Origin: a virus
Direction: 5' to 3' (one strand)
Length of the DNA: 64,000 nt
Virus record (IMG/VR): IMGVR_UViG_3300044726_000156
Part shown: positions 265 through 53,491 of the stretch, in pieces
Position numbering within the stretch: the stretch's first letter is position 1
How the letters are laid out: each line of letters starts with the position of its first letter
Notes under the pieces: model-generated
Told to the model about the DNA's origin: nothing
The model's input: only the letters and a program-made list of their open reading frames with translations
Databases searched by the model: none
Made by a program: the position numbers and the translations under genes

Positions 265-267
265 CGC

Positions 268-2881: not shown

Positions 2882-2894
2882 GCACGTCCTGCGC
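2882..2894 (-). promoter_or_regulatory. Late-leader motif GCGCAGGACGTGC, copy 1 (major capsid leader)
   Basis: Exact 13-mer also at 54775-54787 and 58785-58797. Its GGACGUG pairs with CACGUCC lying between the SD and the AUG. Confidence 0.75.
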
Positions 2895-2943
2895 TTTTGC
2901 GAAGAAATACTTCGAAACGATCGCCGCGGCAAGCGGCATGCGT

Positions 2944-3303: not shown

Positions 3304-3313
3304 TGCCTGCCTC

Positions 3314-3526: not shown

Positions 3527-3529
3527 TCG

Positions 3530-4477: not shown

Positions 4478-4490
4478 GGTCGTGTCCTCT

Positions 4491-7291: not shown

Positions 7292-7336
7292 AGCGCGTTG
7301 TCCGAACTTCCGGGCAAGGCCAGGCGCGCTTGTGCT

Positions 7337-7549
7337 CTATGTCGTCTTTTTTGGCGGCGCTGTAAATGTCGGCGTTCTGTAGGTGGCGCTGTAGCGCCCC
7401 GCGTAGTTGTGACCGTCGGCGACCAGCTTGTCGGCCTGGCCGCGCAACCAGTCGGCGATCAGGATGCGACCGGGACCCGTCATCAGGGCGGCGTCGTTGA
7501 GCACGACGCGGGCGTGCAGGACGTCGTCGTCTCTCACCAGATCAGCCAT
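7337..7549 (-). CDS. Hypothetical protein (70 aa)
   Basis: Packed in the minus-strand operon with typical codon usage. Confidence 0.65.
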   Translation of the reverse strand: MADLVRDDDVLHARVVLNDAALMTGPGRILIADWLRGQADKLVADGHNYAGRYSATYRTPTFTAPPKKTT

Positions 7550-7596
7550 AGCAGGACCAGCAACAGCACGACCGCGGCGACCACGAAGGTGCCCAT
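7534..7596 (-). CDS. Possible 20-aa hydrophobic peptide MGTFVVAAVVLLLVLLWLIW
   Basis: Fills the gap between 7601 and 7549 and forms a single TM segment; RBS is weak. Confidence 0.4.
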   Translation of the reverse strand: MGTFVVAAVVLLLVLLWLIW

Positions 7597-7600
7597 GCGT

Positions 7601-7897
7601 TCAGGCGACATCGTAAACGGTCTCCTTCTCCAGCGGCCACATGAACAGCGGCGTGTTCTCGCCGACCCACGCGCCCAGCGTGTTGAACTGGAAGAACTCC
7701 TCGGCCTCGTCCCACTCCATGCCGTCGCGCTCCATCAGAACCCGAATGCATTTGTCGCAGTCGTAGACGACCAGCGTCGGCTGGCCGCAGCGTTCGGCGA
7801 CGCCGATGATGGCGTCCTCGAAGCCGTCGGCGAACAGCGCCTCGGGATTGCTCTCTGCGACGCGCTCGCGCAGCGCGTCGATCTCTTCCGAGGTCAT
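7601..7897 (-). CDS. Conserved phage hypothetical protein (98 aa)
   Basis: Widespread phage motif ADGFEDAIIG...VVYD...C...LMERDGM...EA.EFF.FN..GAWVG..TP.F. Confidence 0.85.
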   Translation of the reverse strand: MTSEEIDALRERVAESNPEALFADGFEDAIIGVAERCGQPTLVVYDCDKCIRVLMERDGMEWDEAEEFFQFNTLGAWVGENTPLFMWPLEKETVYDVA

Positions 7898-8097
7898 TGA
7901 TCCTCCATCTCGTTGGCTACGTCTTCAAGGGCGATCGCGATGCCACGATAGCCCCGCTGGTTGTCGCGGGAGGAGGCGTTGCTGGCCAGGTTGCGGTAGA
8001 ACGCCGCGGTGTTGCGAACGATGGTGGCGCACCTGTCGCGCTCGGCGCGGCGGACGGCGCGCGTCAGGAAGTCGGCGTCGTGCTCCTTGACCGTCAT
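7894..8097 (-). CDS. Hypothetical protein (67 aa)
   Basis: ATGA overlaps on both sides. Confidence 0.7.
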   Translation of the reverse strand: MTVKEHDADFLTRAVRRAERDRCATIVRNTAAFYRNLASNASSRDNQRGYRGIAIALEDVANEMEDQ

Positions 8098-8276
8098 CGG
8101 TTGTGCCTGTGGTAAACACGGTTATAGCCGGCGAGCGGCGCATCCTGGTCGTTGCGGACCTCGTCGATCAAGCGTTGGAGAGCGACCGAATGCAACGGCA
8201 CGTCCACAGTTGGTGGCAGTGGGGTTGGTGGTTCCTGATCGGATTTCGGATCAGGCCGCGGTAAGTCATATCGCAA
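8094..8276 (-). CDS. YhhA-like cyclophane (triceptide) RiPP precursor peptide (60 aa)
   Basis: TTG start with GGAGG 6 nt upstream; leader S-x-ALQRLIDEVR and C-terminal core YNRVYHRHNR-stop. Confidence 0.72.
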   Translation of the reverse strand: MRYDLPRPDPKSDQEPPTPLPPTVDVPLHSVALQRLIDEVRNDQDAPLAGYNRVYHRHNR

Positions 8277-8294
8277 CGACGGCCTCCATCCAGA

Positions 8295-8381
8295 TCAAAT
8301 CATCCCTGCCCACAGCAGGAGCACCAGCAGCATGACGAAGACGATCAGCGCCTTGCCGATCAGCTCCTCGCGCGGACTCAC
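8295..8381 (-). CDS. 28-aa single-pass membrane peptide MSPREELIGKALIVFVMLLVLLLWAGMI
   Basis: GTG overlaps the previous stop (GTGA); the stop precedes the RBS of the next gene. Confidence 0.55.
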   Translation of the reverse strand: MSPREELIGKALIVFVMLLVLLLWAGMI

Positions 8382-9349
8382 GATCGCCGCACCGGCGCGG
8401 GCCGCGACACGGTGACGGGCACGACATCCTGGTCAGGCGTGTCGTCCTGCACCGCCGGGTAGACGATGAAATCGATCCAGCCGACCGTCGGCGAGACGAT
8501 CTGAACGGTCCATGTGGTGGCCCCGAGCGCGATGTTGTCGCCCTGGATGATCAGGTCCAGCACCGCGGACTGGTCGACCGCCGCATAGTCGACGCGCGAC
8601 ATGCGCAATGTGTCGACCGACAGGTTCGGATGCACGATCTGGCCGTTGGCCGGCTCCCATGGCGGCTCGCTGCCCGGCTTGTAGTATTGCCACTCGGCGG
8701 TGGTGGTCGGCAGCGGCGGCGGCGGCGTCGGCGGTTCGACCGGGATCTCCGCTGCTGGGGTGATGGAAACGACGACCAGCCCCTCGACGGCAGCCTGATC
8801 GGCTGGCGTGATGAGGAAGTCGAACCAGCGATCGCCCTCGACGAGACTGTGGTAGGCCGCAGCGTTGACCGTCCACAGCACCTCGTCGATCGCAATGAAA
8901 TCGCCGGGCTTGACCAGCTCGAGCGTGGCGGTCTGGTCGAGTTCGGCGGCGTCGATGCAGTTCACCGATATCTGCGACAACGTCAGATTGCCATGCACGA
9001 TCTCGCCGGGTGCGGGGATGCCGCCATCCGGCTTGGTGTAGTTCCACGGCGCCGCGGTCGCCTGCAGCCGCGGCGGCTCGGGCGTGATGACCGGCGGCGG
9101 CAACTCGTCGCCGGCGGTGCCGGTGATGATCTGCAGCACCGGCGGGTTGTTGACGATCAGCTCGTAGGCGTCGGCCAGCGGCGCGCTGATCAGCATGAGG
9201 TAGCTTTGCAGCGCCGGACGGTCGACGACGCCGGTGATCACAATCTCGGTCATCGACGGCGAATCGAGCGTGGTCATCGCCTCGATCGGCTCCGAGAATG
9301 GTGCGATCGGAGCGTCGTCAACGAGGATGGCGATGATCTTTATGGCCAT
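8378..9349 (-). CDS. Hypothetical protein with two ~100-aa tandem beta-rich modules resembling tail-fibre shaft domains
   Basis: Both modules carry W.Y.KP...P..G.IVH.NL....D.A..DQ.A.L.L...GD.IA....WTV and are joined by Pro-rich linkers. Confidence 0.7.
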   Translation of the reverse strand: MAIKIIAILVDDAPIAPFSEPIEAMTTLDSPSMTEIVITGVVDRPALQSYLMLISAPLADAYELIVNNPPVLQIITGTAGDELPPPVITPEPPRLQATAAPWNYTKPDGGIPAPGEIVHGNLTLSQISVNCIDAAELDQTATLELVKPGDFIAIDEVLWTVNAAAYHSLVEGDRWFDFLITPADQAAVEGLVVVSITPAAEIPVEPPTPPPPLPTTTAEWQYYKPGSEPPWEPANGQIVHPNLSVDTLRMSRVDYAAVDQSAVLDLIIQGDNIALGATTWTVQIVSPTVGWIDFIVYPAVQDDTPDQDVVPVTVSRPAPVRRS

Positions 9350-9399
9350 GTCACGTCCCTTGTGCGAAGCAATGTGCTCTCATGCACATGGAGGCGATA

Positions 9400-10137
9400 T
9401 TGACACTGACCGCGGCGCTTGGCGAGATCGCCGAAAAATTCCTGCCGTCCCGCCACACCATCACGTTCACATGCCCGCCGCATCTGCTCGGCGTCGTCAC
9501 GCCGCCGCGCCCGGCCGGCGACGTGCTGCCGGAATGGTACAGGAAGATGCCGGCGGTCGACCCGGAGATCGTGTCGATCGAAAGCACTGGCGTCACCCTC
9601 AAACGCTGCATGCCGTTCCTCGACGCGCTCAACGCCGGCTGGATCCTGTCGCTGCCCGCCGAGGTGCATTTCGAGATCAGCGACGACGGCCAGACCGTCC
9701 GTGACAAGCACAACATGCCGTTCAACCTGGTCGAGAGCCACGTCGGCTACCAGACCAAGGGATCGCACTGGGGCGAGACGCCGCCGCTGAAATTCATCAA
9801 CCCGTGGACCATCACGACGCCGGCGGGCTGGTCGACCTTGTTCGTGCCGCTGCTCAATCGCGAGCGCGAATATTTCGAAGTGGCGTCCGGCCTGGTCGAC
9901 ACCGACCGCTACCCGCACCCCGTCAACTTCCCGTTCTTCATGCTGCCCGCGGCGCGCGGCAAGCTGTTCGCGCTGAAGAAAGGCACGCCTCTGGTGCAGA
10001 TGATCCCGGTCAGGCGCGACAGCTTCCGCGCCGACATCCGCAGCGCGACGGCGGACGAGATGCTGGCGGCCGATCGGACGTCGCTGAAGATGAGCGCCGA
10101 GCCGTCCTGGTACAGGAAGCGCGTGCGGCAACGCTGA
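9400..10137 (+). CDS. dUTPase-fold-like (DUF6065-related) hypothetical protein, antisense to the late operon
   Basis: Motifs PEWYRKMP, T.KRCMPFLDAL..GW, KFINPWTITTP.GWS.LF, SGLVDTD.Y...VNFPF and KKGTPLVQMIP..R. TTG at 9400 has a GGAGG RBS; the ORF track starts at 9382. Confidence 0.75.
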   Translation: MTLTAALGEIAEKFLPSRHTITFTCPPHLLGVVTPPRPAGDVLPEWYRKMPAVDPEIVSIESTGVTLKRCMPFLDALNAGWILSLPAEVHFEISDDGQTVRDKHNMPFNLVESHVGYQTKGSHWGETPPLKFINPWTITTPAGWSTLFVPLLNREREYFEVASGLVDTDRYPHPVNFPFFMLPAARGKLFALKKGTPLVQMIPVRRDSFRADIRSATADEMLAADRTSLKMSAEPSWYRKRVRQR

Positions 10138-10139
10138 CA

Positions 10140-10379
10140 TCACTGCACGGTGCCGCCGTCGGCGGCGGCCAGCGTCTCGGCCTCGACGATCGACAGCATC
10201 AGGTTGAGGCCAAGCTCGGTGCTTTCCGAACACGACCAGCTCAGCTCGCCGGTCTTCGGCTCGGCGATGATGACGATGAAGGTGAGGCCGTCGAACTGCA
10301 CCGGATTGGCGGCGTTGGCCATGTCGATGCCACGCACCAGATGGTCCATGACGAGGTCGGTGCGGCCGTTGGGCATCAT
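10140..10379 (-). CDS. Hypothetical protein (79 aa)
   Basis: ATG overlaps the stop of the upstream gene; GAGG RBS. Confidence 0.65.
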   Translation of the reverse strand: MMPNGRTDLVMDHLVRGIDMANAANPVQFDGLTFIVIIAEPKTGELSWSCSESTELGLNLMLSIVEAETLAAADGGTVQ

Positions 10380-10570
10380 GTCGCCTCGCGGCCGCGCAGC
10401 AGATACACCAGCTCGACGGCGAGGGCGCCGCGGGTTCGGATCAGCTCGTCCTTGAGATCGGCGTCCCACGCCCCTGCAGCGTCGCTGCGGCGGACGCGGT
10501 CGCAGGCTTGCAGCCATTCCTCGGCGGCCATCAGCACGTTGAGGGCGTTGGCGAGGTCAGCCGGGATCAT
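10376..10570 (-). CDS. Hypothetical protein (64 aa)
   Basis: ATGA overlap with the terL stop. Confidence 0.65.
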   Translation of the reverse strand: MIPADLANALNVLMAAEEWLQACDRVRRSDAAGAWDADLKDELIRTRGALAVELVYLLRGREAT

Positions 10571-12126
10571 GCTGCCAGCCCCGACTTGTTCTTGCGCGGC
10601 GTCCAGCGGCCGGCGCCGGCGCCGAACCGGAGGTGGCGGATCTGCGCATGCTGGCGGATCGCATCAGCCGCGTGCTGGTGGCCGTTCTTGGCGACCAGCG
10701 GCATCCACACGCCCATCCGTTCGTTCCACTGCTTGGAGAACCCGTCGAGATGCCGGATCCCTAGCGCGCACTTCTCCTGGTCGATCCAATACGTTCCGAA
10801 CGCTTCGCGCAGTTGATCGATCGCATCAGGGACGTGAGGTGTTCGCTGGACCGTTTCGACGTTGGTGACACCCAGATCCCGTAGCAGGTCGACGTAAGTC
10901 TTGAGGTGCTCCGCACCAGGACGACGTTGATTGGCGTCGTGTGGAAGATAATGCCAGCCGTAGACATAGGGGCGCTCCCGCATTTCTCGCACATAATAGC
11001 TCGGCGGCTCCGACGCCGCCTCGGTGTAGTCGATGAAGTACTGGTTGGGTCCGAAATCCTGGTGGAACCAGATCGCCGTGTCGTCGCCGGTGCCGATGTC
11101 CCAAAACGTGTTGACCGGACGGCCCGGGTCGTAGGGAACCTTGGTGATGCGGCGCTCGACGCGGGCGCGCGCCAGCTGCGCGGAAAGCCACAGGCCGTCG
11201 GCCGAGACCGTGAACGCCTCCTCCAGCGTCGACGGATATTGCGAGAACATCTTCTCCTGGTCGTCGCCGAACAAATTGCGCCGCGTGAGCACGTACCAGG
11301 CGCGCTTGGCGGGGCTGATGTCGCGGCGGATCTCGCCTTCCAGCCGGTAGAAGTAGGCGATGTCGTTGCTGTCGAGGAAGGCGGCTTTGGGATCGGCTTC
11401 GTATTCCGGTGCGTCCCACCAGCTGGCGAAGTGCAGCTTCCACTCGAGCGTGCTCGGCGCCCTGTCCTCCTGCTGCGTCTTCTGGGCATTGCGCACCATG
11501 TCGGCGAAGATGCCGTAGGGCGTCTCCATGGTGCTCTCGATGCAGATCACGCCGTGCTGGTCGACCGACGGCAAAGATCCTGTCTGGATTTCAGTGGCGC
11601 GGTCCGGGTAGCGTTGGCAGATGCGGCCGTACTCGGAGACGTGCAGATACTGCAGCGTGGTGCCGCGGGTGCTGGTCGCGACGATCAGGGAGCTGTCGGT
11701 ATTGAAGGCCAGCTCGGTCTTGGTCAGGTACTTCAGCCCGACCATTTCCTTGACCAGCTTCGGAAGGTTGTCCCAGGCGAAGCGCACCTTCTGCTCAAAG
11801 ATCACCCGGGCGGTGTCCTCGTCCTGCGCGATGATCGCGGCCTGCGTGTTCGGCTGAAAAAGGCACGCATCCAGCATCATCAGCTGGATGACGGTGGAGA
11901 AGCCGCGCTGCCGCGCCTTCGGAATGAGGTTGCGATAGTGGATGGCGCGCAGGAACCGCTGCTGCTCCGGCCACGGCTTGAAGGTCACCACCTTGCCGCG
12001 CTTGTCGGTGATCTTGTAGAGGTTGCTCAGCCTCCACCCCGCGTCGCCGATCGCCGCCTGCATCTCGTCGGGCGTCAGCGCCTCGAACGGCTTGTTGTAA
12101 TAGCTGGGGATCTCCATGCGGCTCAT
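10567..12126 (-). CDS. terL: Terminase large subunit
   Basis: Walker A-type KARQRGFST, LHVSEYG (Walker B), ESTM coupling motif and nuclease FWDIGTGDDTAIW...H.ADA; start MSRMEIP. Confidence 0.95.
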   Translation of the reverse strand: MSRMEIPSYYNKPFEALTPDEMQAAIGDAGWRLSNLYKITDKRGKVVTFKPWPEQQRFLRAIHYRNLIPKARQRGFSTVIQLMMLDACLFQPNTQAAIIAQDEDTARVIFEQKVRFAWDNLPKLVKEMVGLKYLTKTELAFNTDSSLIVATSTRGTTLQYLHVSEYGRICQRYPDRATEIQTGSLPSVDQHGVICIESTMETPYGIFADMVRNAQKTQQEDRAPSTLEWKLHFASWWDAPEYEADPKAAFLDSNDIAYFYRLEGEIRRDISPAKRAWYVLTRRNLFGDDQEKMFSQYPSTLEEAFTVSADGLWLSAQLARARVERRITKVPYDPGRPVNTFWDIGTGDDTAIWFHQDFGPNQYFIDYTEAASEPPSYYVREMRERPYVYGWHYLPHDANQRRPGAEHLKTYVDLLRDLGVTNVETVQRTPHVPDAIDQLREAFGTYWIDQEKCALGIRHLDGFSKQWNERMGVWMPLVAKNGHQHAADAIRQHAQIRHLRFGAGAGRWTPRKNKSGLAA

Positions 12127-12323
12127 GGCAGGTCCCACATCTCGACGGCCAGCGCGGCGGCGACCTTCACCTTCAGATACGCATCGTGCTCGGCCTGCCA
12201 GTAATGGTCCGGCAATCCGGTCTTGGTGGCGGCCGCGTAGTTGACCGCGTCGATCATCCTGGCCTTCTCGGCGGCCCACTCGCCGCGCAAACGGTTGAGC
12301 ACGGCGTCGGCGGCGGCGCTCAT
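12123..12323 (-). CDS. Hypothetical protein (66 aa)
   Basis: ATGA overlaps on both sides. Confidence 0.65.
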   Translation of the reverse strand: MSAAADAVLNRLRGEWAAEKARMIDAVNYAAATKTGLPDHYWQAEHDAYLKVKVAAALAVEMWDLP

Positions 12324-12490
12324 GGCAGCACGCAGGCGACGACGGCGGAATAAGCGCGCCGATCGGCGGCCACGGCCTCGCGGATCCGCTTGGCGGCGAC
12401 GACGCAAACCGCCTCACTGCGGAACGTCGAGATGGTGTGGATGGCCGGCAGGTCGCCGCCGAGCACGATGATGACGAGGACCCAGCTCAA
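12320..12490 (-). CDS. Small secreted or membrane protein (56 aa, two Cys)
   Basis: TTG overlaps the upstream stop; reads MSWVLVIIVLGG...F.SE..C..A, a common phage small-protein pattern. Confidence 0.55.
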   Translation of the reverse strand: MSWVLVIIVLGGDLPAIHTISTFRSEAVCVVAAKRIREAVAADRRAYSAVVACVLP

Positions 12491-12624
12491 CCGAGCACCT
12501 GCGGGACGCCGGGCAGCATGATGTCGGTGACCTGGCGGGCGGCCCACCACGCCAGGCCCATCAACGCCACGACGACGGCGCCGACCGCCAGTCCGAACAA
12601 AAGATCGGCCTGCCGGCGGGTCAT
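12487..12624 (-). CDS. Single-pass membrane peptide (45 aa)
   Basis: MTRRQADLLFGLAVGAVVVALMGLAWW...; ATGA overlap. Confidence 0.6.
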   Translation of the reverse strand: MTRRQADLLFGLAVGAVVVALMGLAWWAARQVTDIMLPGVPQVLG

Positions 12625-12749
12625 CCGCACCTCTCGACGACCGCGGCGATGGTGTCGGCGATCGGCACGACGACGAGGAAAAACGCGCCGATGGTCATCG
12701 CCGCCGCGCCGATCCACACCATCACGTAGACCACCGTCAGCTGGCTCAT
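12621..12749 (-). CDS. Single-pass membrane peptide (42 aa)
   Basis: Not in the ORF track. MSQLTVVYVMVWIGAAAMTIGAFFLVVVPIADTIAAVVERCG, with ATGA overlaps on both sides. Confidence 0.6.
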   Translation of the reverse strand: MSQLTVVYVMVWIGAAAMTIGAFFLVVVPIADTIAAVVERCG

Positions 12750-13045
12750 TCGCGCGGCGGCTTGGTGACGGCCTTGACGCCGTGCATGGCGCCGGTCTCG
12801 AAGCAGGTCATGGCCTCGGCCTTCAGCCGGCGCACCTCACCTTCCGCCTTGTCATCGAAATCATTGATAAAATCGATCAGGTCCGCGGCGGCGCGCTTGA
12901 TCTTCTCGACGTTGGGGTCCTTGGAGGGGTTGAAACCGATGCCGACGCGATACTCTCCCAAAGTTGTCATTTTTCTCTCCCGATCGAAACTGTGGTCCAT
13001 GACATCGACGCCGTCGACCATGATGGCGTTGTAGTAGGTCTTCAC
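12746..13045 (-). CDS. Putative Acb2/Tad1-like helical-hairpin protein (candidate nucleotide-signal sponge)
   Basis: TLGEYRVGIGFNPS...V..IK..AA.LID...E..RL.A.A.T..E..AM..VKA.TKP. The probable start is ATG 12970 (GGAGAG RBS). Confidence 0.5.
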   Translation of the reverse strand: MKTYYNAIMVDGVDVMDHSFDRERKMTTLGEYRVGIGFNPSKDPNVEKIKRAAADLIDFINDFDDKAEGEVRRLKAEAMTCFETGAMHGVKAVTKPPRE

Positions 13046-13338
13046 AGCGGCTGCCAGCCGGTCAGCACGATGTCCTCGCAGACCCAGCGGACCTGCCGCG
13101 TGCGGCCCGGCCAGTCGTCGCCCGGGTCGTTATACTCGGGATGCACGTCGACGCTGGTCGCAACCGCCATGCTGTCGATCTCGGCCGCCATGTCCGGTGG
13201 GAAGACGGCATCGAATTCGATCTCGAGATGCATGCGCAAGGTGTCGCCGCGCTGGGCGGCATCGACGACGAGGTTCGGATTGCGGAGCGCAAAGTCGGCC
13301 CACGCGGTGCGGATCGTGTGCTCACGTTCAGTCGTCAT
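13042..13338 (-). CDS. Hypothetical protein (98 aa)
   Basis: ATGA overlap; GAGG RBS. Confidence 0.65.
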   Translation of the reverse strand: MTTEREHTIRTAWADFALRNPNLVVDAAQRGDTLRMHLEIEFDAVFPPDMAAEIDSMAVATSVDVHPEYNDPGDDWPGRTRQVRWVCEDIVLTGWQPL

Positions 13339-13493
13339 CCCCGTCGCCTCTCAACCGGCCCGTAATCGTGGACCTTGCCGCAGTCGTTGCAAGCATAGCC
13401 GATACACAGTGCCCCTCCCCGCCAGCCGCTGACGACGCGGCCGGGGCAGTGATGCAGGCGACAGCGCAGCCAACGCAGCAGGCGATGCAACAT
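13335..13493 (-). CDS. Small Cys/His (zinc-finger-like) protein (52 aa)
   Basis: GGAGAG RBS before MLHRLLRWLRCRLHHC...CIGYACNDCGKV. Confidence 0.55.
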   Translation of the reverse strand: MLHRLLRWLRCRLHHCPGRVVSGWRGGALCIGYACNDCGKVHDYGPVERRRG

Positions 13494-40481: not shown

Positions 40482-43400
40482 TCAGTCGACGGGTTCGGCC
40501 TGCAGTGCCCTCCGCAGCGCCTCGTTCTGGATCAGGATGCCGTCGCCGCGCTCGCGCTTGCCGGCCGCCACTGCGCTGTGACGCAGCGACGAGGCGATCG
40601 ACGTCGACCTGATCGGCATGGTGCGGCCGTAGGTCGACTTGTTCCACTCGCGGATCTTGGCGATCGCGTCGCGGCGCCCGGCGTCGTCACCGAGCTTCAC
40701 CGCCATGGCATAGCCGTTGATGTAGGCTTGCCGGGTCACCTTGATGCGCTGCTCGGCGCCCTTCAGGCGCGAGGTCTCGTCCCACTTTTCGGCGATGTGG
40801 GCCGGAGTGAATCCGGTCGCCTGCGCGATCACCGACCACCAGCCGGTGTCGTCCTGCGAAATGATCGTCTCGCCCGTCTTGGTGGTGACGCCCTCGGTCA
40901 GGTAGCGATAGCTCTTCAGCACGTCCTTGGCCGCCTTGGGCAGGATGGTTTCGGTGCCGCGCCACGCATTGCCTTCGGCGAACAGATCGTAGCCGCGCAT
41001 GACCTGGTCGATGATGCCGGCCGGGGCGCCGACCCACTGCGACAGCATGTAGCTGTACATGTCCTTGCCGGTCTCGATGTCCTGGTTGGGCGAGCGGAAC
41101 CACAGGTCCGGCATGCCGACGCGGGATGTCAGGTCGACGCCGGTCAGCGTTCCGATCGGGCCGTGCAGCAGGACGTTGGACAGCACCGGGCCGAATATAT
41201 CTTTGATCGCCGCCTCGAAGTTTTCCTGCGCCGTGAAAGGGTCGTCGCCCTCGTCGCCGCCGCCAAAGATCGTCGCCATGATCGTCGAGGCGATGCCGTA
41301 CAGGAAGAACGCCGTGTTGTAGCCGGCCACCGCGGTGCCGCCGGCGACCAGCGCCTGCATGCCGAGGATGCCGGCGAGCTGGTAGCGGGCCTCGCGGCGC
41401 AGCTGCTTGGCCTCGACCAGGTCGGCCCCGGTCAGCCCCTTGATCGGCTTGAGGAACGACACATAGAGGTCGCGGCCGAGCCGGTAGAGCATGTTGATCT
41501 GGTAGGAGCGCATCGCCATGATCGTCTTCATGCCGGGCGTCGTCAGGTGCCGCGGCCGCGACGAGTTCGCGTAGTCGAAGTGGGTCTTCCAGACGATGTT
41601 GCTGGCGGTCTTGACGGCCGTGGCGTGGTTTTCACCGGCCTCGATGGCCAGCCGGTAGGCGGCCAGTCCGGTGACCCTGCGATTGATCACCTCGGCCTTG
41701 TGAAACATGATCGTCAGCGCGCCCATGACGCGCGTCCTGATCGGATTGTAGCCCGCGCCCTGCTCGCCGACGCCTTGGATGTCGTAGCTCTGCGTGTTGT
41801 CGATGACGCCGGCGTCGACCATGTCGTTCAGCGCCCGCTCTTCGGTCGCCGACATGCCGCGATTGGAGATCGCGTTGCGCGAGGCGCGCGCCACCGCCGA
41901 CGCAGCCTTCGACATGCTGCCGAACCGGCCAGCCATGATCGGAATGCCGACCATCGGTGTCTGCGCCAGATTGACCGCCGCGGCCGCCGGAGAGGCACCG
42001 AGATAGTATCCGAACGCGGAGGTCGCGGCCCACTGCGCCCACGCCTTGCCGGTCGGGTTCATCACCCAATTGTTGCGCTGCACCATCTCGTCGAAGATGT
42101 TGGTCGCCTGGATCTGCTCGGCCTCCGGCGCGTCCTTGGCGGCCAGGCCCATCTCGTCGATGGTGTCCTGCATATCAGGGGCGTGCTTGAGCTTGGCCAT
42201 CTGGTGGGCGGCGTGGAACATGTGGTTGGCGAAGACGCGCAGCGCGTCGTCGCTGTGCCCCGCGACCATGCTGCGGTGGATGGCGCGGCTCCTGACCGAC
42301 AGGTCCGGCATCGACTGCAGATGGCGCTGCCAGATCTGGTCGAGGATGTTGTCGCGGATCGCCCGCATTCCGGGGTCGTTGGCGTTGGGGATGCCGTCCA
42401 GCATCGCCTCGATCTCGGCGATGAAGGTCGGCTTGATGACCTCCGTCATGTGGTTCAGCTTCGACGGCATCTTGCCCGACTTGATGGTGTCGCCGGCCTG
42501 CAAGTGCGTCCGCGCCGCGGCCTTCATCTGCTTGGCCTGGAAGGCGCTCTCAGCCATCCCGAAATACACCAGCTTGCCGGTGTCGTCGCGGATCGCGACA
42601 TAATAGCTGCCGAACCGGCCGAGCGGGAAATACGGCGCCTTGACCTTGCGGGTCTCGAGCATCGAGCGCAGCCGGTTGACGCGGAAGCGCGCCGACCAGT
42701 GACCGCGCGCCTCGGCGGCGGCCGCAGCGGCGTTGAGCCGGGTGATCTCGGCCGTCTTCTCAGCGGCGGTCTTGCGCGGGTCGGCCTGGATCTCGGCCTC
42801 CTTGCGGGCGCGCTCGCGCTCGGCGGCACGGCGGGCGATCTCCTGCGCCTTGGTGACGTTGTCGAGCAGCAGCTGGTCCATCGCCTGTGACTGCTCCTTG
42901 TAGGCGTCGCGGACCTTGCGGTAGAGGTCGCGCCCGGCGTCCGGCATCGCGTCGAAGCGCGTCTTCAGCGCCGCATAGTCCGGCTCGAGCATGTCGTTGA
43001 GATCGTCAGGATCGACGCCGGCCTTGGTGGCGTCGTGCATCAGCGACGCCAGCGCCTGCATCTTGTCCTTGCCGGCTCGCCCGTACCTGCGCCAGTCCTG
43101 CACGATGTTGTCGGCGGCGTGGTGGAGGACGTTGCGCATGGTGTCCATCGCGCGCTTCTGGTCGATGTAGCGTTCGACGAACGCCTTCACCGATTTCGGC
43201 GACAGGTCCGGCATGTAGTTGAGGTAGACCGCGCCAAGCATGGCCGGCGTGGCGCCGGTCCACAGGCTCCTGATGCGGTCCTTGAGCTGCCACTTGCCGG
43301 GCTGGCGCAGCGTCGAGGCGGCGCCGCCGACGGCGCCGCGGACGTCGGCCAGCAGCTCGTTGATGACGCTGGCCTCGAGGACGTGCTCGCTGTCGGGGTC

Positions 43401-46400
43401 GAAGGTGCCGCGGTTGGCGGTCGACTTGATCTGGTTCGGACGGAACGCCACCCAGGCGTCGGCTTCGTACTCATCCGCGCCGTAGCGTTCGGACAAAAGC
43501 TTGTCGCCGACGATGTGGACGCCATCGTAGCCCTGCTTGATGTAGCGTTGCTGGATGCGCTCCATCTCCTCGGCGCGGCCGTCGGCGTCATAGTCCTGCA
43601 GATAGGCCCAGTCGCCGAGGCCGTTGACCATGTCGATGAACTCGACCGCCGACATCACGTAGGGGTTCTTGATCTTCAGGTAGACCGGCATGAGGTTGGC
43701 GCCGGCCTTATGGGTGAATTTGCGCGGCCAGGTCGTCTCGTCGGGGATCTCGCCGGCGAACATGTTGGCGATGCCGGTGTCGGCCGAGAACCAGAACCCG
43801 AGGTTCGCCGTGGAGTGGCCGGTGTTGGTGCCGCTCTCGTTGGGGTCGAAGCGCGAGAAGTCGGCGGTGGTGCCGTGATAGACGCGCAGCGGGTTGCCGT
43901 CGGCGTCGACCACCTTGCTGCCCTTGAACCACCGCTCGAATTGCGGCGTGCGCAGCCGATCGGAAACGTCGGCCGCTTCTAGTTCTGGAACATCTCCGGC
44001 AGCTCCGCTTCCAGCTCCGCGCTCCAATTGGCGGGCAGGTCCAGACCGTATGCCGACTCCAGATATTGTTCTCTCGTAAGTGGAAGGTTCAGCTCCACCA
44101 TCATCCCGAGCACCGGGTCGATACCAGCTTGGAGATTCAATTCCTCCGGCGAGACGGAGGATCTCAGATCTCGCGGCTTCTGCGGTGATTTCGCCATTTC
44201 GCACCCGCCTCCACACGGCGTCGATCATCTCGACATTGGCAGCCTGCGCCTTGAATGTGGCAGTGAACAGGCCGCGTACTGCCTCCCACGTAATAGACTG
44301 CAGCTCGCGCGGCAAGATACCAAGTTCAGCCGCAAGTTCACGATGAGCATCGGCGATCAGGCCGTAAGATCCACTGGTGCCTGAGATGCCGACATTCTTC
44401 ATCGACCGCCAGTTGCGGTCCTGGTCCTCGAGCGGCGGCGAGGTTCCGAAATTGTGGTTGACCTCATAGGAGCCGCCCGACAGCGCGCGCAGCAACGCCG
44501 CCGCGACGGCGTGGGTGTCGATCGTAACGTCGCCCTTCTTGGCCTTGGGCGCGAGGATGTTGTTGAAGAAGTTGCGGACCTTGTGCTTCTTGCCCATCCG
44601 CTTGGAGACGTTCTCATAGGACGGGTCGCGGATCACCGCGACCGCCTTGCCGATCTCCGACAGCGATCCCCATGCGACGTTGTCGACCAGGTCGCCGACG
44701 AAGTTACCCTCCGAGCTGACCTGCCGGTGACGCGGGTCGTGGTAGGTCTGGTCGTAGATCCTGACCCACATCGCCTGCATGGCGTAGACGTGCTTGGTGC
44801 CCTTGTACTGCTCGTCGATCTGGTCGAGCGTCTTGCCGCGGATCAGGTCGAGCATGGCGACCTTGTCGGGCTTGGTGCCGAACAGCACGTAGCCGTTCTC
44901 GCCCATCATGTTGGTCCACGGCGCCTTCGAGCGGAACGTCATAATGTCGAGCACGCGCTCGGCCAGGCTGACGTTCTGATACCAGTCCTTCTGCGGCGAC
45001 AGCGCCGCCAGCGCCCCGGCGATGACATGGTCGGGCAGCTTGTAGCGGACCATCCAGTCGTCGGTGATCTTGCGTGCGCCGTCGTACCAGAGCTTGGTGC
45101 GGTTGCGCTGCGCCGGCGGGATCTGATCGTACAGCCAGCGCAGATTGGCCTTGACCATGTCCTTGAACACGCGGGCGATGTGGTCGGAATTCCGGGTGGC
45201 GATGCCGCGCGGCATGTTCACGTACTGGGCGACCACCCGCATGTTGTGCTGGAAGGCGCCCTTGTTCGGCTCGGCCTTCATCGAGGCGGTGTCGACGGTG
45301 AGCCGCTCGACGAGCGGGTCCTCGGTCTTCGACACCAGATCGGGGAAGCGCGTCGAGATCCGAACCGGGCTGTCGCCGTCCTTCTGAACAGACGAGGTCG
45401 GAACCTCGCGGTCCTTGAACGGCGGCATGCTGGCCTCGAGCGACGGCCCCTGCTCCATCTCGGCGACGGCGGCCGGCGACCACGGGCCGTCGACCATCTC
45501 GCCGCCGTTCTTCCAGTTGACCCACGCCTTGACCCGCTCGATGCCGACCGCCTTGGCGACGCGGATGCGGGTGTTGCCCTCGTTCATAAATGCCTGGCCC
45601 TTGTGATTGACCATCACGAAGACCGGGTTCTCGTTGGTGTAGCCGCTCTCCTTCACCTTCTTCAGCAGGTTGTCGTACTGGAACTCACCCTCGGCGCGCT
45701 TGCCGTGCTCGTCCATGATGCCGGGCAGCTTCAGCAGCTCGTCGACCGGCAGGTAGAGATCGGATTTCTGGCCGGCGGTGGCGGTGGTGGCGCCGTAGGT
45801 GCCGCTCTTCGCCGGGCCAGGACGAGTGGCGTTGGCCATGTCCTCCTCGGCGTTGGCCTGCTTGCGGGCCAGCCATTCCTCGCCGCCCGAGTAGCCCTTC
45901 ACCGCCGGATTGTCCTGCGTGAAGCTCACCGGACGCGCCTCGACCGCCGGTGCGGCGCGCTGCACCGGACCCTTGAGCAGCTCCTTCTCGGTCGGGATCG
46001 AGCCATGCACGCGCTTGCGCGTGTCGTGGGGGTCGTCGACCCACTGGTCGCCCTTCTTGATGGTGTGCTGCACCACCACGGCCCAGCGGCCGTGCTCGTC
46101 AGGCTCGAAGGCGATCACCCTGTCGTGGGTGCCGCCATAGCTCTTCACGATATTTCCCGGCGTGTAATATTCGGAGACCCGCGCCATGAATTCGGCGCGC
46201 TCACGCTCGGCCTTGGTCGGCTTCTTCGGCTTTACTGCCGCTTCGCCGCCAGCTTTTTGTCCAGGTTTAGCCGGTCCCGCAGCCGGCTTTGCGCCGACGC
46301 CAGCATCTCGTTTCGCTGACGGCCGGGTGGTAGCGCCGCCATCTCGTCCCTGAAGGACCGCAAGATCTGCGGTGTGGCGAACGGGTCCGGCTGGTCGATC

Positions 46401-49400
46401 AGCATCGGCGGTTCCGCCGAGGGCTTTGCGGTGTTTGGCGACGACTTTGTCATAGGCTTCCTTGATACCAGGGATCGCCAACATAGGCGAGCCGGCAATG
46501 CGGCCGACGACGTCATAGTCGACAATGCCTGCCTCCTGCAGGGCCAGGTTGGAGAGGTGGTGGAATTCGGGGCTGGCGTCCTCGACCGTGGTCACGCCGT
46601 CCATGATCGCCTGCTGCATGGCGCGGATGATCGGCTTGGTGGCGTCGTCCAGATACCGCTTCACGCGCGATGTGTGGTCGGTTTCGTGGTAGCCGAGCTT
46701 GGCGCCCTTGATCAGGAAGGCGCGACCGGCCGCCGTCGCCGCCATGCGGAACGAGGTCGCGCCGTTGTGTAGGTGCGCGTAGATCGCCGTAACGCCGGGC
46801 AACGCGGCGACGGAAACGTCGGCCTCGCTCAGCGACACGCCGATCGGATGGTTGTGGTGGATGACCACCTGTTCCGTAGCATTGGTCAGGATCCGCCAGA
46901 TCCGCGGCGACAGGCTGACCGAGCTTTTCTTGCCTTCGCCGTTGCCGACGACATCGCCGTTGGCGTCGACGATGACCATGTTCTCGTTCTTGTTGGCCTT
47001 GCCGCGGGTGATCACCAAATCCTTGGCGGTGTCGCCCTTCTGGCCGTCGAGCGTGATGTCGATGCCGTGGTCGACATAGCGGTTCGGAATGCTGTCCGGC
47101 CCGTTGTTGCGCGCGATCGTGCGCGTGAAGCCTGCCGCGACCGGCGGCTTCGTCTGCACGGTCGCCGCCGCACGGTCCTGGTTCTCGGACATCGACGCAC
47201 GCGCAGTCGGGTCCTGCGCCATGAAGAAGGCGTAGGCGAATCCCTCCGGCGTCAGCGACCGCTCGGCCTTGTCGTAAGGATTGTCGCCGCGCAGCTTGGA
47301 CTGCATCTTGGAGCCTTGCACAGGCTCGACCGGGGCGATCGGCAGGTCGGTGGAGAACGACCCCCACAGCCGCGTCTCCTTGGTGTAGCTGTCACCGAAA
47401 TCGGTCGGATCGAACACCATCAGCGGCTTCGGCAATCCGGTCATTTCCGAGATGCGGCCGCGCGGGTTTTCGAGGACGTGGAACTGCGGCTTGAACAGGT
47501 CCACGTAGGCGCCCGTCATGTGGACCATCCAGGCATTGGCGGCGAGCGGTGTGTCGAAGTGCATCGCCGCCTTTGGTCCGAACCGCTTCAGCACCTCGAC
47601 CGGATTCGGCTTGTCGTGCAGGGTTGGCCAGTGCTGCGCGCCGGACCCGGCGAAGGTGGTGCAGGGGCAGGCGCTGAGCACCCCCACGACGGTGTAATCC
47701 TTGCCAAGCGCCTCCTCGATGTCGCTCTGAATGACGGCCGGCGATTCCTCGAAGATGTCGATGCCGTGGTCGATGTCGATCTGAACGACGTGGTAGCCGG
47801 CGTCGCGGAACGGCTTCGACCAGGACCCCGAGGAATCGAACAGCGAGATGATCACCCGCTTCGAATTGTCGACCTTCGCGCCGATCGCCTTGGCGGTCGC
47901 CTTCCAATCGTCGACGCGGGCGCGCGCCTCGTCCTCGCCGATCGTCGCGTGGCCCTTGGCCGGGTCGATGGTCTTTTTCGGCGTCGGAAAAACCCAGTCG
48001 CCCTCTTTCGTACCGTAGTGAAAATTGTCCTTTTCCGGGTCGTAGCTGATCAGCCCCCCTTCGACGCGGCCCTTCATCAGGATGTCGGCGATCTCGTTGC
48101 CGGCCGCCTCCTCCTCCTCTGGTGTAGAGGCGAAGATCTCCAGCAGCTTGTCCGACAGCTGCTCCTCTGGGGTCCGGGCGCGCTTCTTGCGGAGCTTGGC
48201 CGGCGGGCCGGGGATCTCGGTCGTCTCGGTCGCCGGTGCCTTTCCACGCGGCAGGCTGTCGATGAACGCGCCGATCTTCTTGGCCGCGGTGCCGTCGTTG
48301 TCGGCGTTGGGCAGATGCGCGAACAGCGGCCCGGTGTCGATCACCAGCTGGCCGGGGAAAGCCTTCGCCATCTTGTCGCCAAAACGGGCCAGGTCGGAGC
48401 CGGGAGGCGCCTCTTTGATGCGCCCTCGGATGTCGCCCCACTGCTTGTCGAGCTTCTGAGCCGCGTCGCGCAGCAGCGGGTGGTTGTAATAGTCGACGAT
48501 CTGGTCCTGTGCGCCCTTGTTGAACCAGCCGTCGTCCTTGCCGACGCCAAAGAACGGATACCACTTGCCGGTCGCTACCTTCTCTTTGCCGCCGGCCCCG
48601 GTCGAAATGTAGAACGGCACCTGGACGCCGCCGATATCGACCATCGTGATGATGCGGCCGCCGCGCCGGAAGAACGGGAACTTGGGATCGATAGTGCCAA
48701 CCACCAGCGGCTGGCCCTTGGCCTGCGGCTTGTCCGACAGGATGACCGCAGCCATCTGCTTCTCTTCGTCCGTCCACTGGCCGTAGAACAGCTCGGTCGC
48801 GCCGACCTGCTTCCTGAGTTCCTCGAAGCTGATGCCCTTCTTTTCGGACGCCTCGCGCACCTGTTTGGCGGTCAGCGGAGTGACTGGCTCCGACGCCGCC
48901 GCCGGCGCCTTTGGCGGTACGCCGGCGGCGGGCTTCGCCGCAGCGGAAGGAACTGACGCCGCGGGTTCTCCGGTTTGCTTAGCCGGCTTGGCCTTCTCCT
49001 TGGCGTGCTCGGCCTGCATGCGCTTGACCACGTCCGGCCGCACCCGATGCACGACCTTGCCGAGATCGGCCGCCTGCCTGGCGCGCGAGAAATAGTCGTC
49101 GACCAACGCGCCGGCGCTCTCGAAGGAGATGTTCATCTTGTCGGCGATCGCCTGCTGCGTGACGCGATCGACTTCGCCACGCTGCTTGGGAGCCACCGAC
49201 GAGCGCGCCGCACCGAGATCGTACAGCGTGGCGTGGCCGGCGTCGGGGAACGTGGTCGGCTTCAGCTCGCCGTCGCGAACCGGAACGTCGCGCTGCAAGG
49301 AAGTCGTCGACTTTTTTGCAGGGGGCGCAGCCGGGGCCGCAGTGGGCGCGGCCGCCGGCTTTGCCCCAGTCGTCACGGGTGACGCCGGACGTGCCTGAGA

Positions 49401-52268
49401 CCCTGCGACGGTACGCTGGCGGGCCAGCTTCTGCAACGTCGCGGCAGCTTCCGCGTCGGACATCGCGTCGAAATCGTCGCGATTGACGCCGCCCCATTTC
49501 AGGAGATCGACGACCTCCTGCTGCTCCGGCGTCAGTTGCTCGGCCGCACCGACCTCGGTCGGTGCGGCCTCGCCACCCGCGGTTGGCGACGCGGTCGCGC
49601 CTGCGGGCATCCCTGTCACGTCCGCCCCGGCCGTCGGGGGTGTTTCTTCAGCCGGGGCGGCGAGCGGCGAGACCTGCGCGATCGGCACGGTGCCGACCTC
49701 GCCGTCATCAAACTTGACGTTCGGATCGCCGTTTGGATCGTAGCTCTCGATGACGCCGGTAGTCATCCCCTCCGGCCCGTCGACGCCGGGGATCTGGATC
49801 GTCACCCTTGTTCCGGGCGGCGCCGCTCCGTTGGCGACCGCCTGTTGAGTTACCTGGCGCTGGGCTTCCGTCTCACCGTGGTCAAGGGCGCTCTCCAAAG
49901 CCCCTTTTGGACGGGTCGGGAGATTGGCGCCGGCGACCATGCCGGCGCGCTCTGCAGGCGATGTGACCACGCCGCCCGGGGGTCCACCGGCAGGGGGTGT
50001 TTGCGCGCCAGCCGCCGGTGGTGGTTCTGCTGTCTCGTCAGCGGGAGGCGTGGGTGCCGCGGCTTCGTCCGAACTCACCGCACCGGCCGCGCCGCCGATA
50101 CCGCCGCCCATGATGCCGCCGGTCACCGCGCCGCCGAGCGCGGCGTTGGCGACGCCCTCCGTCAGCTCGCGGTTCGGATCGACATTGCCGACGCCGATAT
50201 TGGTGGCGACCTGCTCGGAGCCACTCTGAACGGTCTCCTCGAGCGCCTCGCCGACGGCTTCCTTGGCCGCGCCCTTGAGGATGCGCTTCTTGACGCCGCC
50301 GCTGAGACCTTTGGACAGGATGTCGGTCAGGATCTTGTCGCCGCGGCCGCCGACCATGCCGGTGGTGACGCCGGCGATCAGTCCGGCCTGCGCCGCCGAA
50401 TCATTGGTGATCGTCGCCTTGGCGTCTTCTGGCGTCATGCCCTCGGCGATCAGTGCCTTGTAGCTGTCGCTCTGTTCCCAGACCTCCTGTGGCAGCGCCG
50501 CCATTTCGGCGCGCACGGCCTCGGACGTCGAGCCGCCGGCCAGCAGACCCTCGCCGACGCCACCGGCCAGCAGCGCCGTCTTGGCTGCCTGCTTCGACGC
50601 CACTTGCTTGGTCAGGCCGGCGGCGACCGCGGCCTTGAACGTGCCGCGTGCCAGCAGCTGCGCCGGACCCATGGTCAGAACGGACGACGGCAGCGATTCG
50701 ACAATGCCCGACAGATACGCGCGCGGGTCGGACCAGGCGTCTCCGAGCTGGCCGTTTTCCGAATCCCACCAATCCTTTTCGCGCGCCGCCTGCGTCTTCT
50801 TCGACAGCGCGTCGGTGTAGGCTTTGGTCTCCTCGGCGAACAGCTGCTCGGTCGGCTTGCCGGTGATGACCTCGTCGATCTTGCTCATCCCGGCTTCGAT
50901 GTAGTCGCCGCCTGGCAGGGCGCGCACGATCTCACGCAGCGCATGGCCCGGCATCTGCGCGCCGAGCACCAGAAGGTTGCCGATGTCGCTCATCAGGCCG
51001 GGCTGCTCGGCGTCCCACTTCTCCTTCCACTTTTCGTAGCCAGCGGCGGGGATCTGGATGAGCGGCTTCTTGCCGTCGGCGATGCGCTGGGCGTTGACGG
51101 CGGCGAGCGGGTCGTCCGGCTTGACCGTCGCCGTCGCCCCCGCCGTCCCGCCGACCGTCCCGCCCACCGTCGGCGGCGCCGCTGCCTGCTTGAAGCTGGC
51201 CATCGGGTCGAACGATTTGATGCCGAACGTGTCGGGCATGTTGTCGGGCGCGATCTCGGCGTCCTTGTTGACGACGATGCGCGCCATGCCGCTCGGTGAC
51301 TGCGCGACAGATCCGGTGGTGCCGTAGTCGATCGAGTTGTCGCCGACCGCGCCGGCGTACTCGAAGTGCATCGGATCTTTTCTGCCCTTGAAGTCGCCGC
51401 CCCAGACCAGGCCGTGCTTGGCGGCCAGCTCGCGGATGTTGCTGGGGAGATCGGATTTGCCACCGCCGAGCGGGTTGGTGACGGCGTTCAAGTCGATCGC
51501 CGTGCCGAACGCATGCTGCGACAGCTTGTTGCCGCCGCGGATCTTGCGGTAGTTGAAGCCGCCGGACGATTTGACGTTGTAGCCTTGAGCGGCGAGGTCC
51601 GAGATCAGGCCGTTGAAGGCCGCGGCCGCCGGCTTGTAGACCGTCCACTTCTGACCCTTGACCGGCTCGATCGTGGTCAGGTTGTCGCGCTGCCACGCTG
51701 GATCCTTGGGATCGCCGATGGTAGCGGTATTGGCCCAGTTGGCTTTGCCGCTGCCGGCGCCGCCGGTGCGGCGCGGCTTGCCCTCGGCCTTGGCGCCGCC
51801 GCTCGTATAGAACTCGTGCTGGCCGATCTTGGCGGTCTTCTTGAGGCCACCGGCCCAGCCGGGCTTGACGTAGTCGGCGTGGTAGTGGTCGGCCCCTCCC
51901 GTGATATCCGGCAGCGCGCCGGTCATCACGCCGTCGACGATGCGCTCGGCCTCGGCGCGGATCGCCGGATCGCGCTGCGCCTTGCGCGCGCCAGCGCCTG
52001 GATGCTCGTAGCCGGTGAACTGCTTGCGCTCCTTGACGACGGCGTCCGGGTCCAGCCCGCGCTTCTCGGCGCGGTTCTTGATGACGCCGGCGACCGCCTG
52101 CATGCCCTTGGAGCCTTCACCAGCGGCTTCGGCGATGACGGTGTCGACAACTGCGCTGCGGTTGCGAGAATGCGCTGGCGGGGCTGCCTTGGCCGCAGGC
52201 GCGGGCGTTGCAGCCGGCTGCTGCGCCGTCGGCTCGAACGAGAACCCCTTGACGACGATTCGTTCCAC
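40482..52268 (-). CDS. Giant internal virion / ejection polyvalent protein (~3,928 aa, PLxRFG type)
   Basis: GTG overlaps the upstream TAG. Domains seen: SleB-type hydrolase, M15 peptidase, C5-MTase, JAB-like, ParB-like, glycosylase-like, ART-like, and C-terminal PYFPLGRFG. Confidence 0.9.
43979..44197 (-). CDS. Nested overprinted gene (72 aa) inside the giant gene, alternate frame
   Basis: GGAGG 10 nt before the ATG; better GC3 than the host frame; GIDPVL..M....[10 protein letters not shown]...W.AE.EAELP. Confidence 0.7.
   Translation of the reverse strand: MAKSPQKPRDLRSSVSPEELNLQAGIDPVLGMMVELNLPLTREQYLESAYGLDLPANWSAELEAELPEMFQN
46232..46405 (-). CDS. Nested overprinted gene (57 aa) inside the giant gene, alternate frame
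   Basis: [26 protein letters not shown]...; 8/57 codons end in A/T versus 33/58 in the host frame (hand count). Confidence 0.68.
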   Translation of the reverse strand: MLIDQPDPFATPQILRSFRDEMAALPPGRQRNEMLASAQSRLRDRLNLDKKLAAKRQ

Positions 52269-53491
52269 TACCGCGACACTCCGAGCTGGCCGACCTGCGC
52301 GGCGCGCATGATGTCCTGCGGCCACTGCTCCGGCGGGATGCCGGCCTGAACCAGCGCCTGGCCGACCTGCTGTGGATTGGCGCCCTGCTTGAGCGCCTGC
52401 GACGCCTGCGCCAGGTATTGCTGCTTCTGACCGTCCTGCACCTCGCTGGTCGCCGCCACCGGCGACGGTGCCTGGCCGCCGACCGGCTCAGCAGGCGCGG
52501 CCGGTGCCTGCGACACCTCGTCGAGCGGCGCCTGAACGCCGAGCTGCTCGTCGGTTTCGTCGGCCGCCGGCGGCGCCGCCGAATCGGTGGCGGGGGTTTC
52601 GATCGGAACCTGCTCGCCGGTTTCCGGGTCGACGGTGACCTGTGGCGCGGCTGGGGCGGTCGACGTCTTTCCGAACCGCTCGTCGACGATCTTGCGGGCC
52701 AGCGCCTCCTTCTCCTCGCCGGTCAGATCGGACAGCTCGGGGTCGGTCAGCGAGTTGGTCTCGATGTTCTTGCGCTCTTCCTGGATGGCGTTCTGGTACT
52801 GCGCCTGCGTCAGCGCGCCGGAACCGACGCCCAGCTCGGCCTCGGCCTGCTTCTTGCGGACGTGCGTCCTGACTTCCAGATCGGCCTTCGACTCGGCCGC
52901 CTTGGCCGCCTGCTCCATCTCGAAGGCCGCCTTCGGGTTGACCAGATTGGCGAAGAACTGCGGCAGGTCGCCGGTGGCGACATTCTTGGTGTGCTCCTTG
53001 CCGTCCTTGGTGGTGAACGACAGGCGATAACCCGTCACCTGGCCCGCCGCCTCGTCGAAATACTCAGCCACCGAGACCTTGCCATCGATGCCGTAGCCCT
53101 GCGTGTTGGCGGCCTTCTGCATGTCGAGCACGGCGCCCTCGATGTCGCCGTTCTGGAACTTGGCCAGCCCGCTCATAAACTTCTTCGAGCCAGCCTTGGC
53201 GGCCGAGGACTCGGCCCAGTCGGCCCACGCCTGCGCCTTGGCCGGATCGCCGTCGAGCAGGTATTCGTTGGCCACCTTGGGCACGACATGCTGGGCATAA
53301 AAGCTCATGTAATCGTCCGGCTCGGCCTCGCCGGACTGGACGGCGGCGTCGAACTCGGCCTTGCCCTCGGCACCGGCCTGCTCGACCGCACCCTCGAGCT
53401 TGCGCTGCTTGCGGATGCCGCGAATCCGATCGCCCAGGTCTATGCCTTGGCTGAACCCCTGCGCGAATGCTCCCAGCGCGATGCCCAGCAT
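52268..53491 (-). CDS. Internal virion / ejection protein (407 aa)
   Basis: N-terminal LGAFAQGFSQG; lies between two ejection genes; AGGAGG RBS. Confidence 0.75.
   Translation of the reverse strand: MLGIALGAFAQGFSQGIDLGDRIRGIRKQRKLEGAVEQAGAEGKAEFDAAVQSGEAEPDDYMSFYAQHVVPKVANEYLLDGDPAKAQAWADWAESSAAKAGSKKFMSGLAKFQNGDIEGAVLDMQKAANTQGYGIDGKVSVAEYFDEAAGQVTGYRLSFTTKDGKEHTKNVATGDLPQFFANLVNPKAAFEMEQAAKAAESKADLEVRTHVRKKQAEAELGVGSGALTQAQYQNAIQEERKNIETNSLTDPELSDLTGEEKEALARKIVDERFGKTSTAPAAPQVTVDPETGEQVPIETPATDSAAPPAADETDEQLGVQAPLDEVSQAPAAPAEPVGGQAPSPVAATSEVQDGQKQQYLAQASQALKQGANPQQVGQALVQAGIPPEQWPQDIMRAAQVGQLGVSR

Follow-up and report, generated by a model that had tools for sequence, protein, structure and literature searches.

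A small gene very probably nested out of frame in a giant polyvalent phage gene, and its predicted pairing with the DUF7178 domain encoded upstream

The locus and the nested open reading frame

The window analyzed here is a stretch of 64,000 nt from the viral record IMGVR_UViG_3300044726_000156, and all window coordinates follow its numbering. Its late structural block contains a giant gene for a polyvalent virion protein and, inside this gene, on the same strand and in the +1 frame, a short open reading frame (ORF) with a product of 72 residues (Table 1). This nested ORF is very probably a real gene, conserved as a family well beyond the window, and its product appears to be a partner of the DUF7178 domain that the giant gene encodes directly upstream.

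The nested ORF begins at an ATG (44197) and ends at a TAG stop (43979–43981, minus strand). The first-pass annotation of this DNA had described the frame as having its own Shine-Dalgarno (SD) motif, a GGAGG 10 nt upstream that is supplied by the Trp-Arg codons of the host frame, and had counted by hand the codons ending in A or T, 46 of 73 in the host frame and 21 of 72 in the nested one. The description was exact on re-reading, as were both figures on recount. Throughout the giant gene such codons make up 13.1%, and the excess at the nested gene is the highest peak of its kind there (binomial P 5e-23). The GC content at third codon positions (GC3) of the host frame drops here from about 0.95 to 0.37–0.53, while the nested frame, with GC1/2/3 near 0.62/0.45/0.70, has a normal coding profile. 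No sigma-70-like internal promoter was found upstream of the nested gene.

The length of the ORF is not beyond chance and is in itself no evidence for a gene. There are 22 open runs of at least 70 codons in the +1 frame of the giant gene, and the 72 nested codons stay open in 88% of random synonymous recodings of the host peptide. The weight for a real gene lies on the anomaly in codon usage, on homology and on conservation.

The host stretch directly upstream of the nested gene (44229–44399, minus strand) is also rich in codons ending in A or T (23 of 57) and holds no other open frame; the closest relative, a 65.5-kb viral contig (L001), has codons ending in G or C at the same residues. A tract of recombination, or a signal serving the nested gene, may lie behind this richness.

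Table 1. Features of the giant gene in the window, and free-standing members of the small-protein family (coordinates of the latter within their own loci).
Feature	Coordinates	Strand	Remarks
Nested gene	43979..44197	minus	72 codons plus TAG stop; +1 frame of the giant gene; characterized by family, conservation, selection, fold and charge
SD-like GGAGG	44208..44212	minus	10 nt upstream of the nested ATG; made by host codons TGG-AGG (Trp-Arg)
Giant polyvalent protein gene	40482..52325	minus	3947 codons; late structural block
DUF7178 domain (Pfam PF23802)	44106..45428	minus	host residues 2300–2740; predicted binding target of the nested protein
Overlap zone	44121..44198	minus	conserved C-terminal segment of DUF7178 (2710–2735, ends G-G-I-x-x-P-x-W) over the N-terminal 25 codons of the nested gene
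Host-frame linker	43977..44120	minus	residues about 2736–2783, rich in G/R/A/S; -1 reading of the conserved nested core
ART-PolyVal (ADP-ribosyltransferase) domain	43404..43907	minus	residues 2807–2974; after the linker
Free-standing member, L003	1107–1316		no DUF7178 within reach
Free-standing member, L018	2424–2615		no DUF7178 within reach
Free-standing member, L040	6001–6198		no DUF7178 within reach

A widespread family of small acidic proteins

Among the annotated frames of 120 giant homologues, the host peptide finds its counterparts but the nested peptide matches nothing. A profile of the nested proteins recovered 14 separately called small proteins among 5.8 billion (E-values 1e-31 to 5e-4), which share the motif D-x-x-L-x-x-M-x-x-x-G-I-P-L-T-R-E-N-Y-L, continued further on by a segment of 12 letters. 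An exhaustive search with a profile across 1.84 billion cluster representatives turned up 2,086 matches at E<=1e-3, of which 672 reach E<=1e-10; almost all are 55–100 residues long. No name for the small protein was found in Pfam, PHROGs or the ESM Atlas. Widespread and unannotated, this protein-coding gene spans thousands of sequence clusters and escapes gene callers wherever it is nested.

The family is acidic, with a mean net charge of -5.7 and 86% of its members negative; the product of the window (P0001) carries -7, and its core -8. It was modelled as four short helices, with a confidence (predicted local distance difference test, pLDDT) of 73.5 overall and about 85 in the core; its residues Y45, E61, and E63 are invariant.

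Variants of the small protein were also seen. In the set comprising P0140, P0147 and P0273, some members, of 149 and 189 aa, carry the small domain twice in tandem, and in one member of 596 aa an N-terminal small domain is fused to a long region without Pfam match. As to the free-standing members of Table 1, the one in L003, from an Acidobacteriaceae metagenome-assembled genome, adjoins DNA methylase and restriction-like genes, and those in L018 and L040 follow a LuxR-type response regulator among other tiny ORFs. Such bacterial members may be orphan protective copies.

Three architectures downstream of DUF7178

We fetched about 30 loci encoding the small protein and read their junctions. Nearly all of them have an ATG with an SD-like motif 5–11 nt upstream. 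Used as tblastn query, the DUF7178 region of the giant protein matched in 22 of these loci immediately upstream of the small ORF; L037 and L039 gave the same result. Three arrangements could be distinguished. In the separate one (L006, L014, and L031), the small gene starts at the stop of DUF7178, with ATGA or TAATG overlaps and in another relative frame. In the overlapped one (L005, L013, L015–L017, L025, L028, and L039), the DUF7178 ORF ends one or a few codons past its conserved P-x-W motif and covers the first 10–25 codons of the small gene. Lastly, in the nested one (the window, L001, L007, L009, L012, L024, L033–L036, and L041) the host frame runs on, and in every fully nested case it is the host +1 frame that the small gene uses. 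Searches of the deposited phage collection by blastn and tblastn yielded no useful relatives.

Six further distant giant homologues were picked blind to their alternative frames and their DNA was read. The nested gene was present in five of them (L033–L036 and L041; hmmsearch E 4e-15 to 2e-6), and is found in six of the seven giant relatives read. One of the five is a bacterial chromosome, that of the cultivated Piscinibacter gummiphilus (L041), where gene 201–13382 encodes a polyvalent protein of 4393 residues with the nested small gene (E 6e-13). The sixth, the 11.9-kb locus L042, contains no homologue of the small protein, and its host frame passes from P-x-W straight into another structured region, providing a natural control of DUF7178 without a partner.

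The earlier annotation had proposed that a cassette of effector domain and partner was absorbed into the polyvalent protein, the other frame of the partner becoming a linker, and had recommended a tblastn search for free-standing homologues beside the same domain. Separate small genes directly downstream of DUF7178 do exist, and the absorption fits both the graded architectures and the low-complexity, less conserved host peptide.

Selection in the nested frame

The closest relative, L001, is 82% identical to the window in this part and keeps a 74-codon version of the ORF. Comparison of the two DNAs shows long runs of perfect identity inside the ORF, and upstream of it a synonymous change every few codons. 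Changes at host third positions number 12 of 72 in the overlap versus 76 of 200 upstream (Fisher P 7e-4), and identity is 57/72 for the nested peptide and 52/72 for the host one.

A second pair, L009 and L024, offers the clearest case; it differs upstream by about 8/5/47 per 300 nt at the first, second and third host codon positions; inside the nested gene the differences are 18/4/5 by host position, that is, 4/5/18 by nested position, with identities of 60/67 (90%) for the nested peptide and 45/67 (67%) for the host one. In distant nested pairs the nested core is 36% identical and its host shadow 21%. The phase of substitution jumps from the host to the nested frame, and therefore it is the nested frame that selection reads, the host peptide being a drifting linker. 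With the family found also as separate genes, the frame intact in L001 and kept in most of the giants, and selection following its codon positions, the original proposal that the nested ORF is a real gene holds, including its expectation that the frame should be intact in a close relative.

Modules of the giant protein

The giant protein contains, in this order, the Pfam domains Hydrolase_2, Peptidase_M15_4, DUF7178, ART-PolyVal, and LPD39. Its gene is flanked on one side by tail-fibre, internal-virion and structural genes and on the other by an endolysin gene, and therefore occupies the place of an internal virion protein that a podovirus-like phage ejects. The longest ORF starts at a GTG (52325); the start annotated in the closest relative matches the GTG at 52268 (V-E-R-I-V-V-K-G-F), which is perhaps the true one, and the first 19 codons (52268–52325) may be untranslated.

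The overlap of the two genes is reciprocal. The variable N-terminus of the nested protein, modelled with low confidence (pLDDT 52–59), lies over the conserved end of DUF7178, and the conserved nested core overlies the low-complexity host linker. Behind P-x-W most of the 120 giant homologues have the host motif S-S-Y-E-G-E-L, precisely what the nested motif P-L-T-R-E-N-Y gives when read in the shifted frame. A strict regular expression on host peptides for the A-E-L-E-A-E-L-P-E shadow found 8 of the 120 relatives, and the DNA was read directly instead. The stop of the nested gene coincides with a module junction of the giant protein (about 43960–43990 in the window, about 10970–11000 in L001): directly past it the window continues into ART-PolyVal, and L001 into LPD39, its ART domain being placed elsewhere. 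Recombination may have had a breakpoint where the nested gene ends.

A second nested candidate, of 57 codons (46232–46405, minus strand), lies in the +1 frame behind a JAB-like domain of the giant protein. It is kept in L001, with differences of 11/8/19 by nested codon position, and corresponds to the second-highest peak of host codons ending in A or T (32 of 57). A search of 5.8 billion proteins with its product returned only itself. Low host-frame GC3 within a high-GC giant gene offers a cheap detector of nested genes, the two strongest dips being the two candidates described here.

The fold of DUF7178 and its predicted complex with the small protein

DUF7178 (residues 2300–2740) was modelled with a pLDDT of 94.9. 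In an exhaustive structural alignment, the top 20 of 48,161 chains were all HhH-GPD-type glycosylases or the queuine salvage enzyme (Z 9.1–5.5). The best match was the 8-oxoguanine glycosylase Tm1821 (3n0u; Z 9.1, root-mean-square deviation 4.2 Å, 191 residues), with the queuine salvage enzyme DUF2419 at Z 8.8 (7ugk, 228 residues) and 8.1, and Pa-AGOG, endonuclease III, Mag1, MagIII, ROS1, OGG1, MutY, and NTHL1 also among the top 20. An alignment of 49 domains, read together with the model, places helices 271–277 and 282–292 on either side of an invariant G279, followed by the invariant P294 and D304, the latter within I-D-T-H. Endonuclease III has V-D-T-H, with its catalytic Asp in what may be the corresponding place. 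At the level of the modelled fold DUF7178 looks like an HhH-GPD DNA glycosylase, and to this extent the structural alignment supports the first-pass annotation, which had called the domain glycosylase-like and had asked for a complex model with the nested product.

That model of DUF7178 with the small protein scored 0.91, versus 0.00 for all three controls, including one in which DUF7178 was swapped for an unrelated protein. Among solved complexes 58 of 80 come up to the mark for such scores, and among mismatched pairs 2 of 110, counts that serve only as a rough guide, author-made alignments having been used here. The modelled interface involves nested residues 22–72 and about 125 contacts with domain residues 145–146, 182–192, 211–219, 252–264, 276–284, 304–305, and 317–333, which take in the invariant positions 145–146, 279–284, and 304–305; it covers the hairpin and the invariant Asp face of DUF7178. 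This amounts to in silico support for the partnership, and the small protein probably binds DUF7178.

Interpretation and competing explanations

The explanation we prefer, with a probability of roughly 0.55 as a whole, is that the small gene is translated from its own SD and ATG, out of frame within the giant virion gene, and that its acidic product is a dedicated partner of DUF7178 that masks it in the cell where virions are built. DUF7178 and its partner would have started as two neighbouring genes. With DUF7178 taken up as an internal module of the polyvalent protein, the host frame would have come to read through the partner gene, yielding the low-complexity linker that joins DUF7178 to the next module, and the partner gene would have survived in the +1 frame. 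Residues 22–72 or so, the conserved core of the small protein, are predicted to cover the helix-hairpin-helix, the Gly/Pro loop and the invariant-Asp face, and could mask a cleft for DNA binding or catalysis, so that the protein would serve as a DNA-mimic-like antidote in the virion-building cell; once ejected into the next host, the giant protein would act free of it. We favour the antidote role because of the acidity of the protein, the predicted coverage of the hairpin and Asp face, and the orphan copies in bacteria. Taken separately, an inhibitory role toward DUF7178 has somewhat less than an even chance.

Several observations weigh against this explanation. The GC3 of the nested frame is under the genome norm, and the window and L001 show a less pronounced pattern of differences (8/12/16) than L009 and L024 do. 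A minority of the family sits in contigs of bacterial appearance where no DUF7178 lies within reach (L003, L018, and L040), and L042 (gene 201–11717) encodes a giant DUF7178 protein without the small gene, which makes the partner not obligatory. As to the glycosylase fold, Z-scores of 5.5–9.1 are rated middling by the aligner for helical models and speak for likeness of fold, not proof; sequence and profile searches of Pfam and the PDB link DUF7178 to no glycosylase (no Pfam HhH-GPD match), and Foldseek found no match for the DUF7178 model in the PDB. The complex, finally, is a model on unpaired, author-made alignments.

The main rival holds that the small protein is the product of a real gene and does bind DUF7178, not as an inhibitor but as a subunit that the domain requires, a chaperone for its folding or packaging, or a cofactor that is co-ejected and completes or targets the domain. 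The same synteny and the same complex model apply to it, a large interface on invariant residues would be expected for an obligate subunit too, and tandem and fused versions of the small domain exist. We nevertheless consider it distinctly less probable, since strong acidity and a place over the putative DNA-binding hairpin and Asp face suit occlusion better, orphan bacterial copies without DUF7178 fit protection better, and L042 manages without the small gene.

Another possibility is that the gene is real and has a different target, for instance a host defence or repair protein, its linkage to DUF7178 being genomic hitch-hiking. Binding to DUF7178 rests on the model, and there are members beside restriction-modification genes and LuxR-type regulators away from any DUF7178; however, tight linkage in three architectures across very divergent phages, and a complex score so far above that of every control, render it improbable.

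A programmed +1 frameshift near P-x-W in place of an independent gene, adding a tail of 47 residues to DUF7178 and giving in this phage a truncated product of about 2,780 residues beside the full-length one, would account for the shift of conservation from the host to the +1 frame exactly at P-x-W and for the +1 relation in every overlapping or nested case with a continuing frame. It is nevertheless very unlikely: the small gene of L006, L014, and L031 comes after the host stop, at ATGA/TAATG junctions and in another relative frame, copies stand free without any DUF7178, nearly every locus has an SD and ATG, no slippery motif shared by the loci was noticed, and the fully nested cases have no zero-frame stop at the site. 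A chance open frame, arising as a by-product of a conserved host peptide (the S-S-Y-E-G-E-L-type motif), agrees with the ordinary length of the ORF, its persistence after synonymous shuffling and the recurrence of the host motif in many giant relatives, but is contradicted by homologues in which the host frame is absent or closed by up to six stops, by substitutions that follow the nested codon phase, by a nested peptide more conserved than the host one, and by the collapse of host codon usage at the nested gene.

Returning to the preferred explanation, that of an out-of-frame partner gene with a masking role, it would mean that a linker between domains of a giant polyvalent protein can originate as the out-of-frame shadow of a gene that was absorbed, and it pairs DUF7178 and the small acidic protein, as a working hypothesis, as a glycosylase-like virion effector and its cognate binder. 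A bolder extension, which we find doubtful, is that polyvalent virion proteins hide antidote genes for their own dangerous modules in the alternative frames of linkers, the small protein being a DNA-mimic-like inhibitor of a hitherto unrecognized HhH-GPD-type glycosylase effector, produced solely in the virion-building cell and left behind at ejection, and that bacteria have captured orphan copies as immunity to effectors of this kind when they come in. The second candidate behind the JAB-like domain suggests that hidden antidotes could be a general design rule.

Comparison with known systems

We found no mention of DUF7178 in the literature searched, and none joining HhH-GPD, bacteriophage and an inhibitor protein. 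A survey of polyvalent proteins mentions no glycosylase-like module and no overlapping, nested or frameshifted genes (PMC5512222). With the HhH-GPD glycosylases (AGOG, endonuclease III, MutY, OGG1, and AlkA) and DUF2419, DUF7178 appears to share, in its model, a helical fold of two lobes and a putative helix-hairpin-helix followed by a Gly/Pro loop and an invariant Asp; it is about twice as large as a typical member, and at the sequence level it matched neither Pfam HhH-GPD nor any PDB chain.

As a gene arrangement, the closest parallel is that of the spanin genes Rz and Rz1 of phage lambda and its relatives, which occur in embedded, overlapped and separated forms across phages; an Rz1-type gene may lie wholly inside Rz in the +1 frame, and binding between the two products is presumed (Kongari et al. 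2018, PMC6139136). The likeness extends to an inner gene with its own start signal and stop, the +1 frame, the three architectures and purifying selection on the inner frame. The proteins, their function and their location are unrelated, Rz and Rz1 being membrane lysis proteins. Moreover, the outer gene here encodes a giant multi-domain virion protein, and the nested gene spans the end of a domain and an inter-domain linker.

In polymorphic toxin systems (CdiA-CT/CdiI, Rhs, and type VI secretion system effectors) the immunity gene is located downstream of the effector. The present pair resembles such cassettes in having a small cognate gene directly downstream of an enzymatic domain directed at nucleic acid (here putatively), in the orphan copies of the small gene in bacteria and in the predicted placement of the small protein on the conserved face of the domain. 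It differs from them in being internal to a phage virion protein, with the small gene kept by overprinting, and in being known from sequence and models.

The proteins Ugi (PBS1/PBS2), p56 (phi29), and SAUGI are DNA-mimic inhibitors of uracil-DNA glycosylase (UDG). Like them, the small protein described here is small, strongly acidic and phage-associated, and may, if the model is right, fill the DNA-binding cleft of a glycosylase. Unlike theirs, its predicted target is HhH-GPD-like, and not of the family-1 UDG fold, and is a domain of the phage itself instead of a host enzyme. We found no relation in sequence or fold between the small protein and Ugi, p56 or SAUGI; it is no member of this group, and its mode of action may be similar. 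If the inhibition is true, the small protein would be the first natural protein to inhibit a target of the HhH-GPD-type fold, and would show how phages keep an ejected DNA-modifying weapon harmless during assembly.

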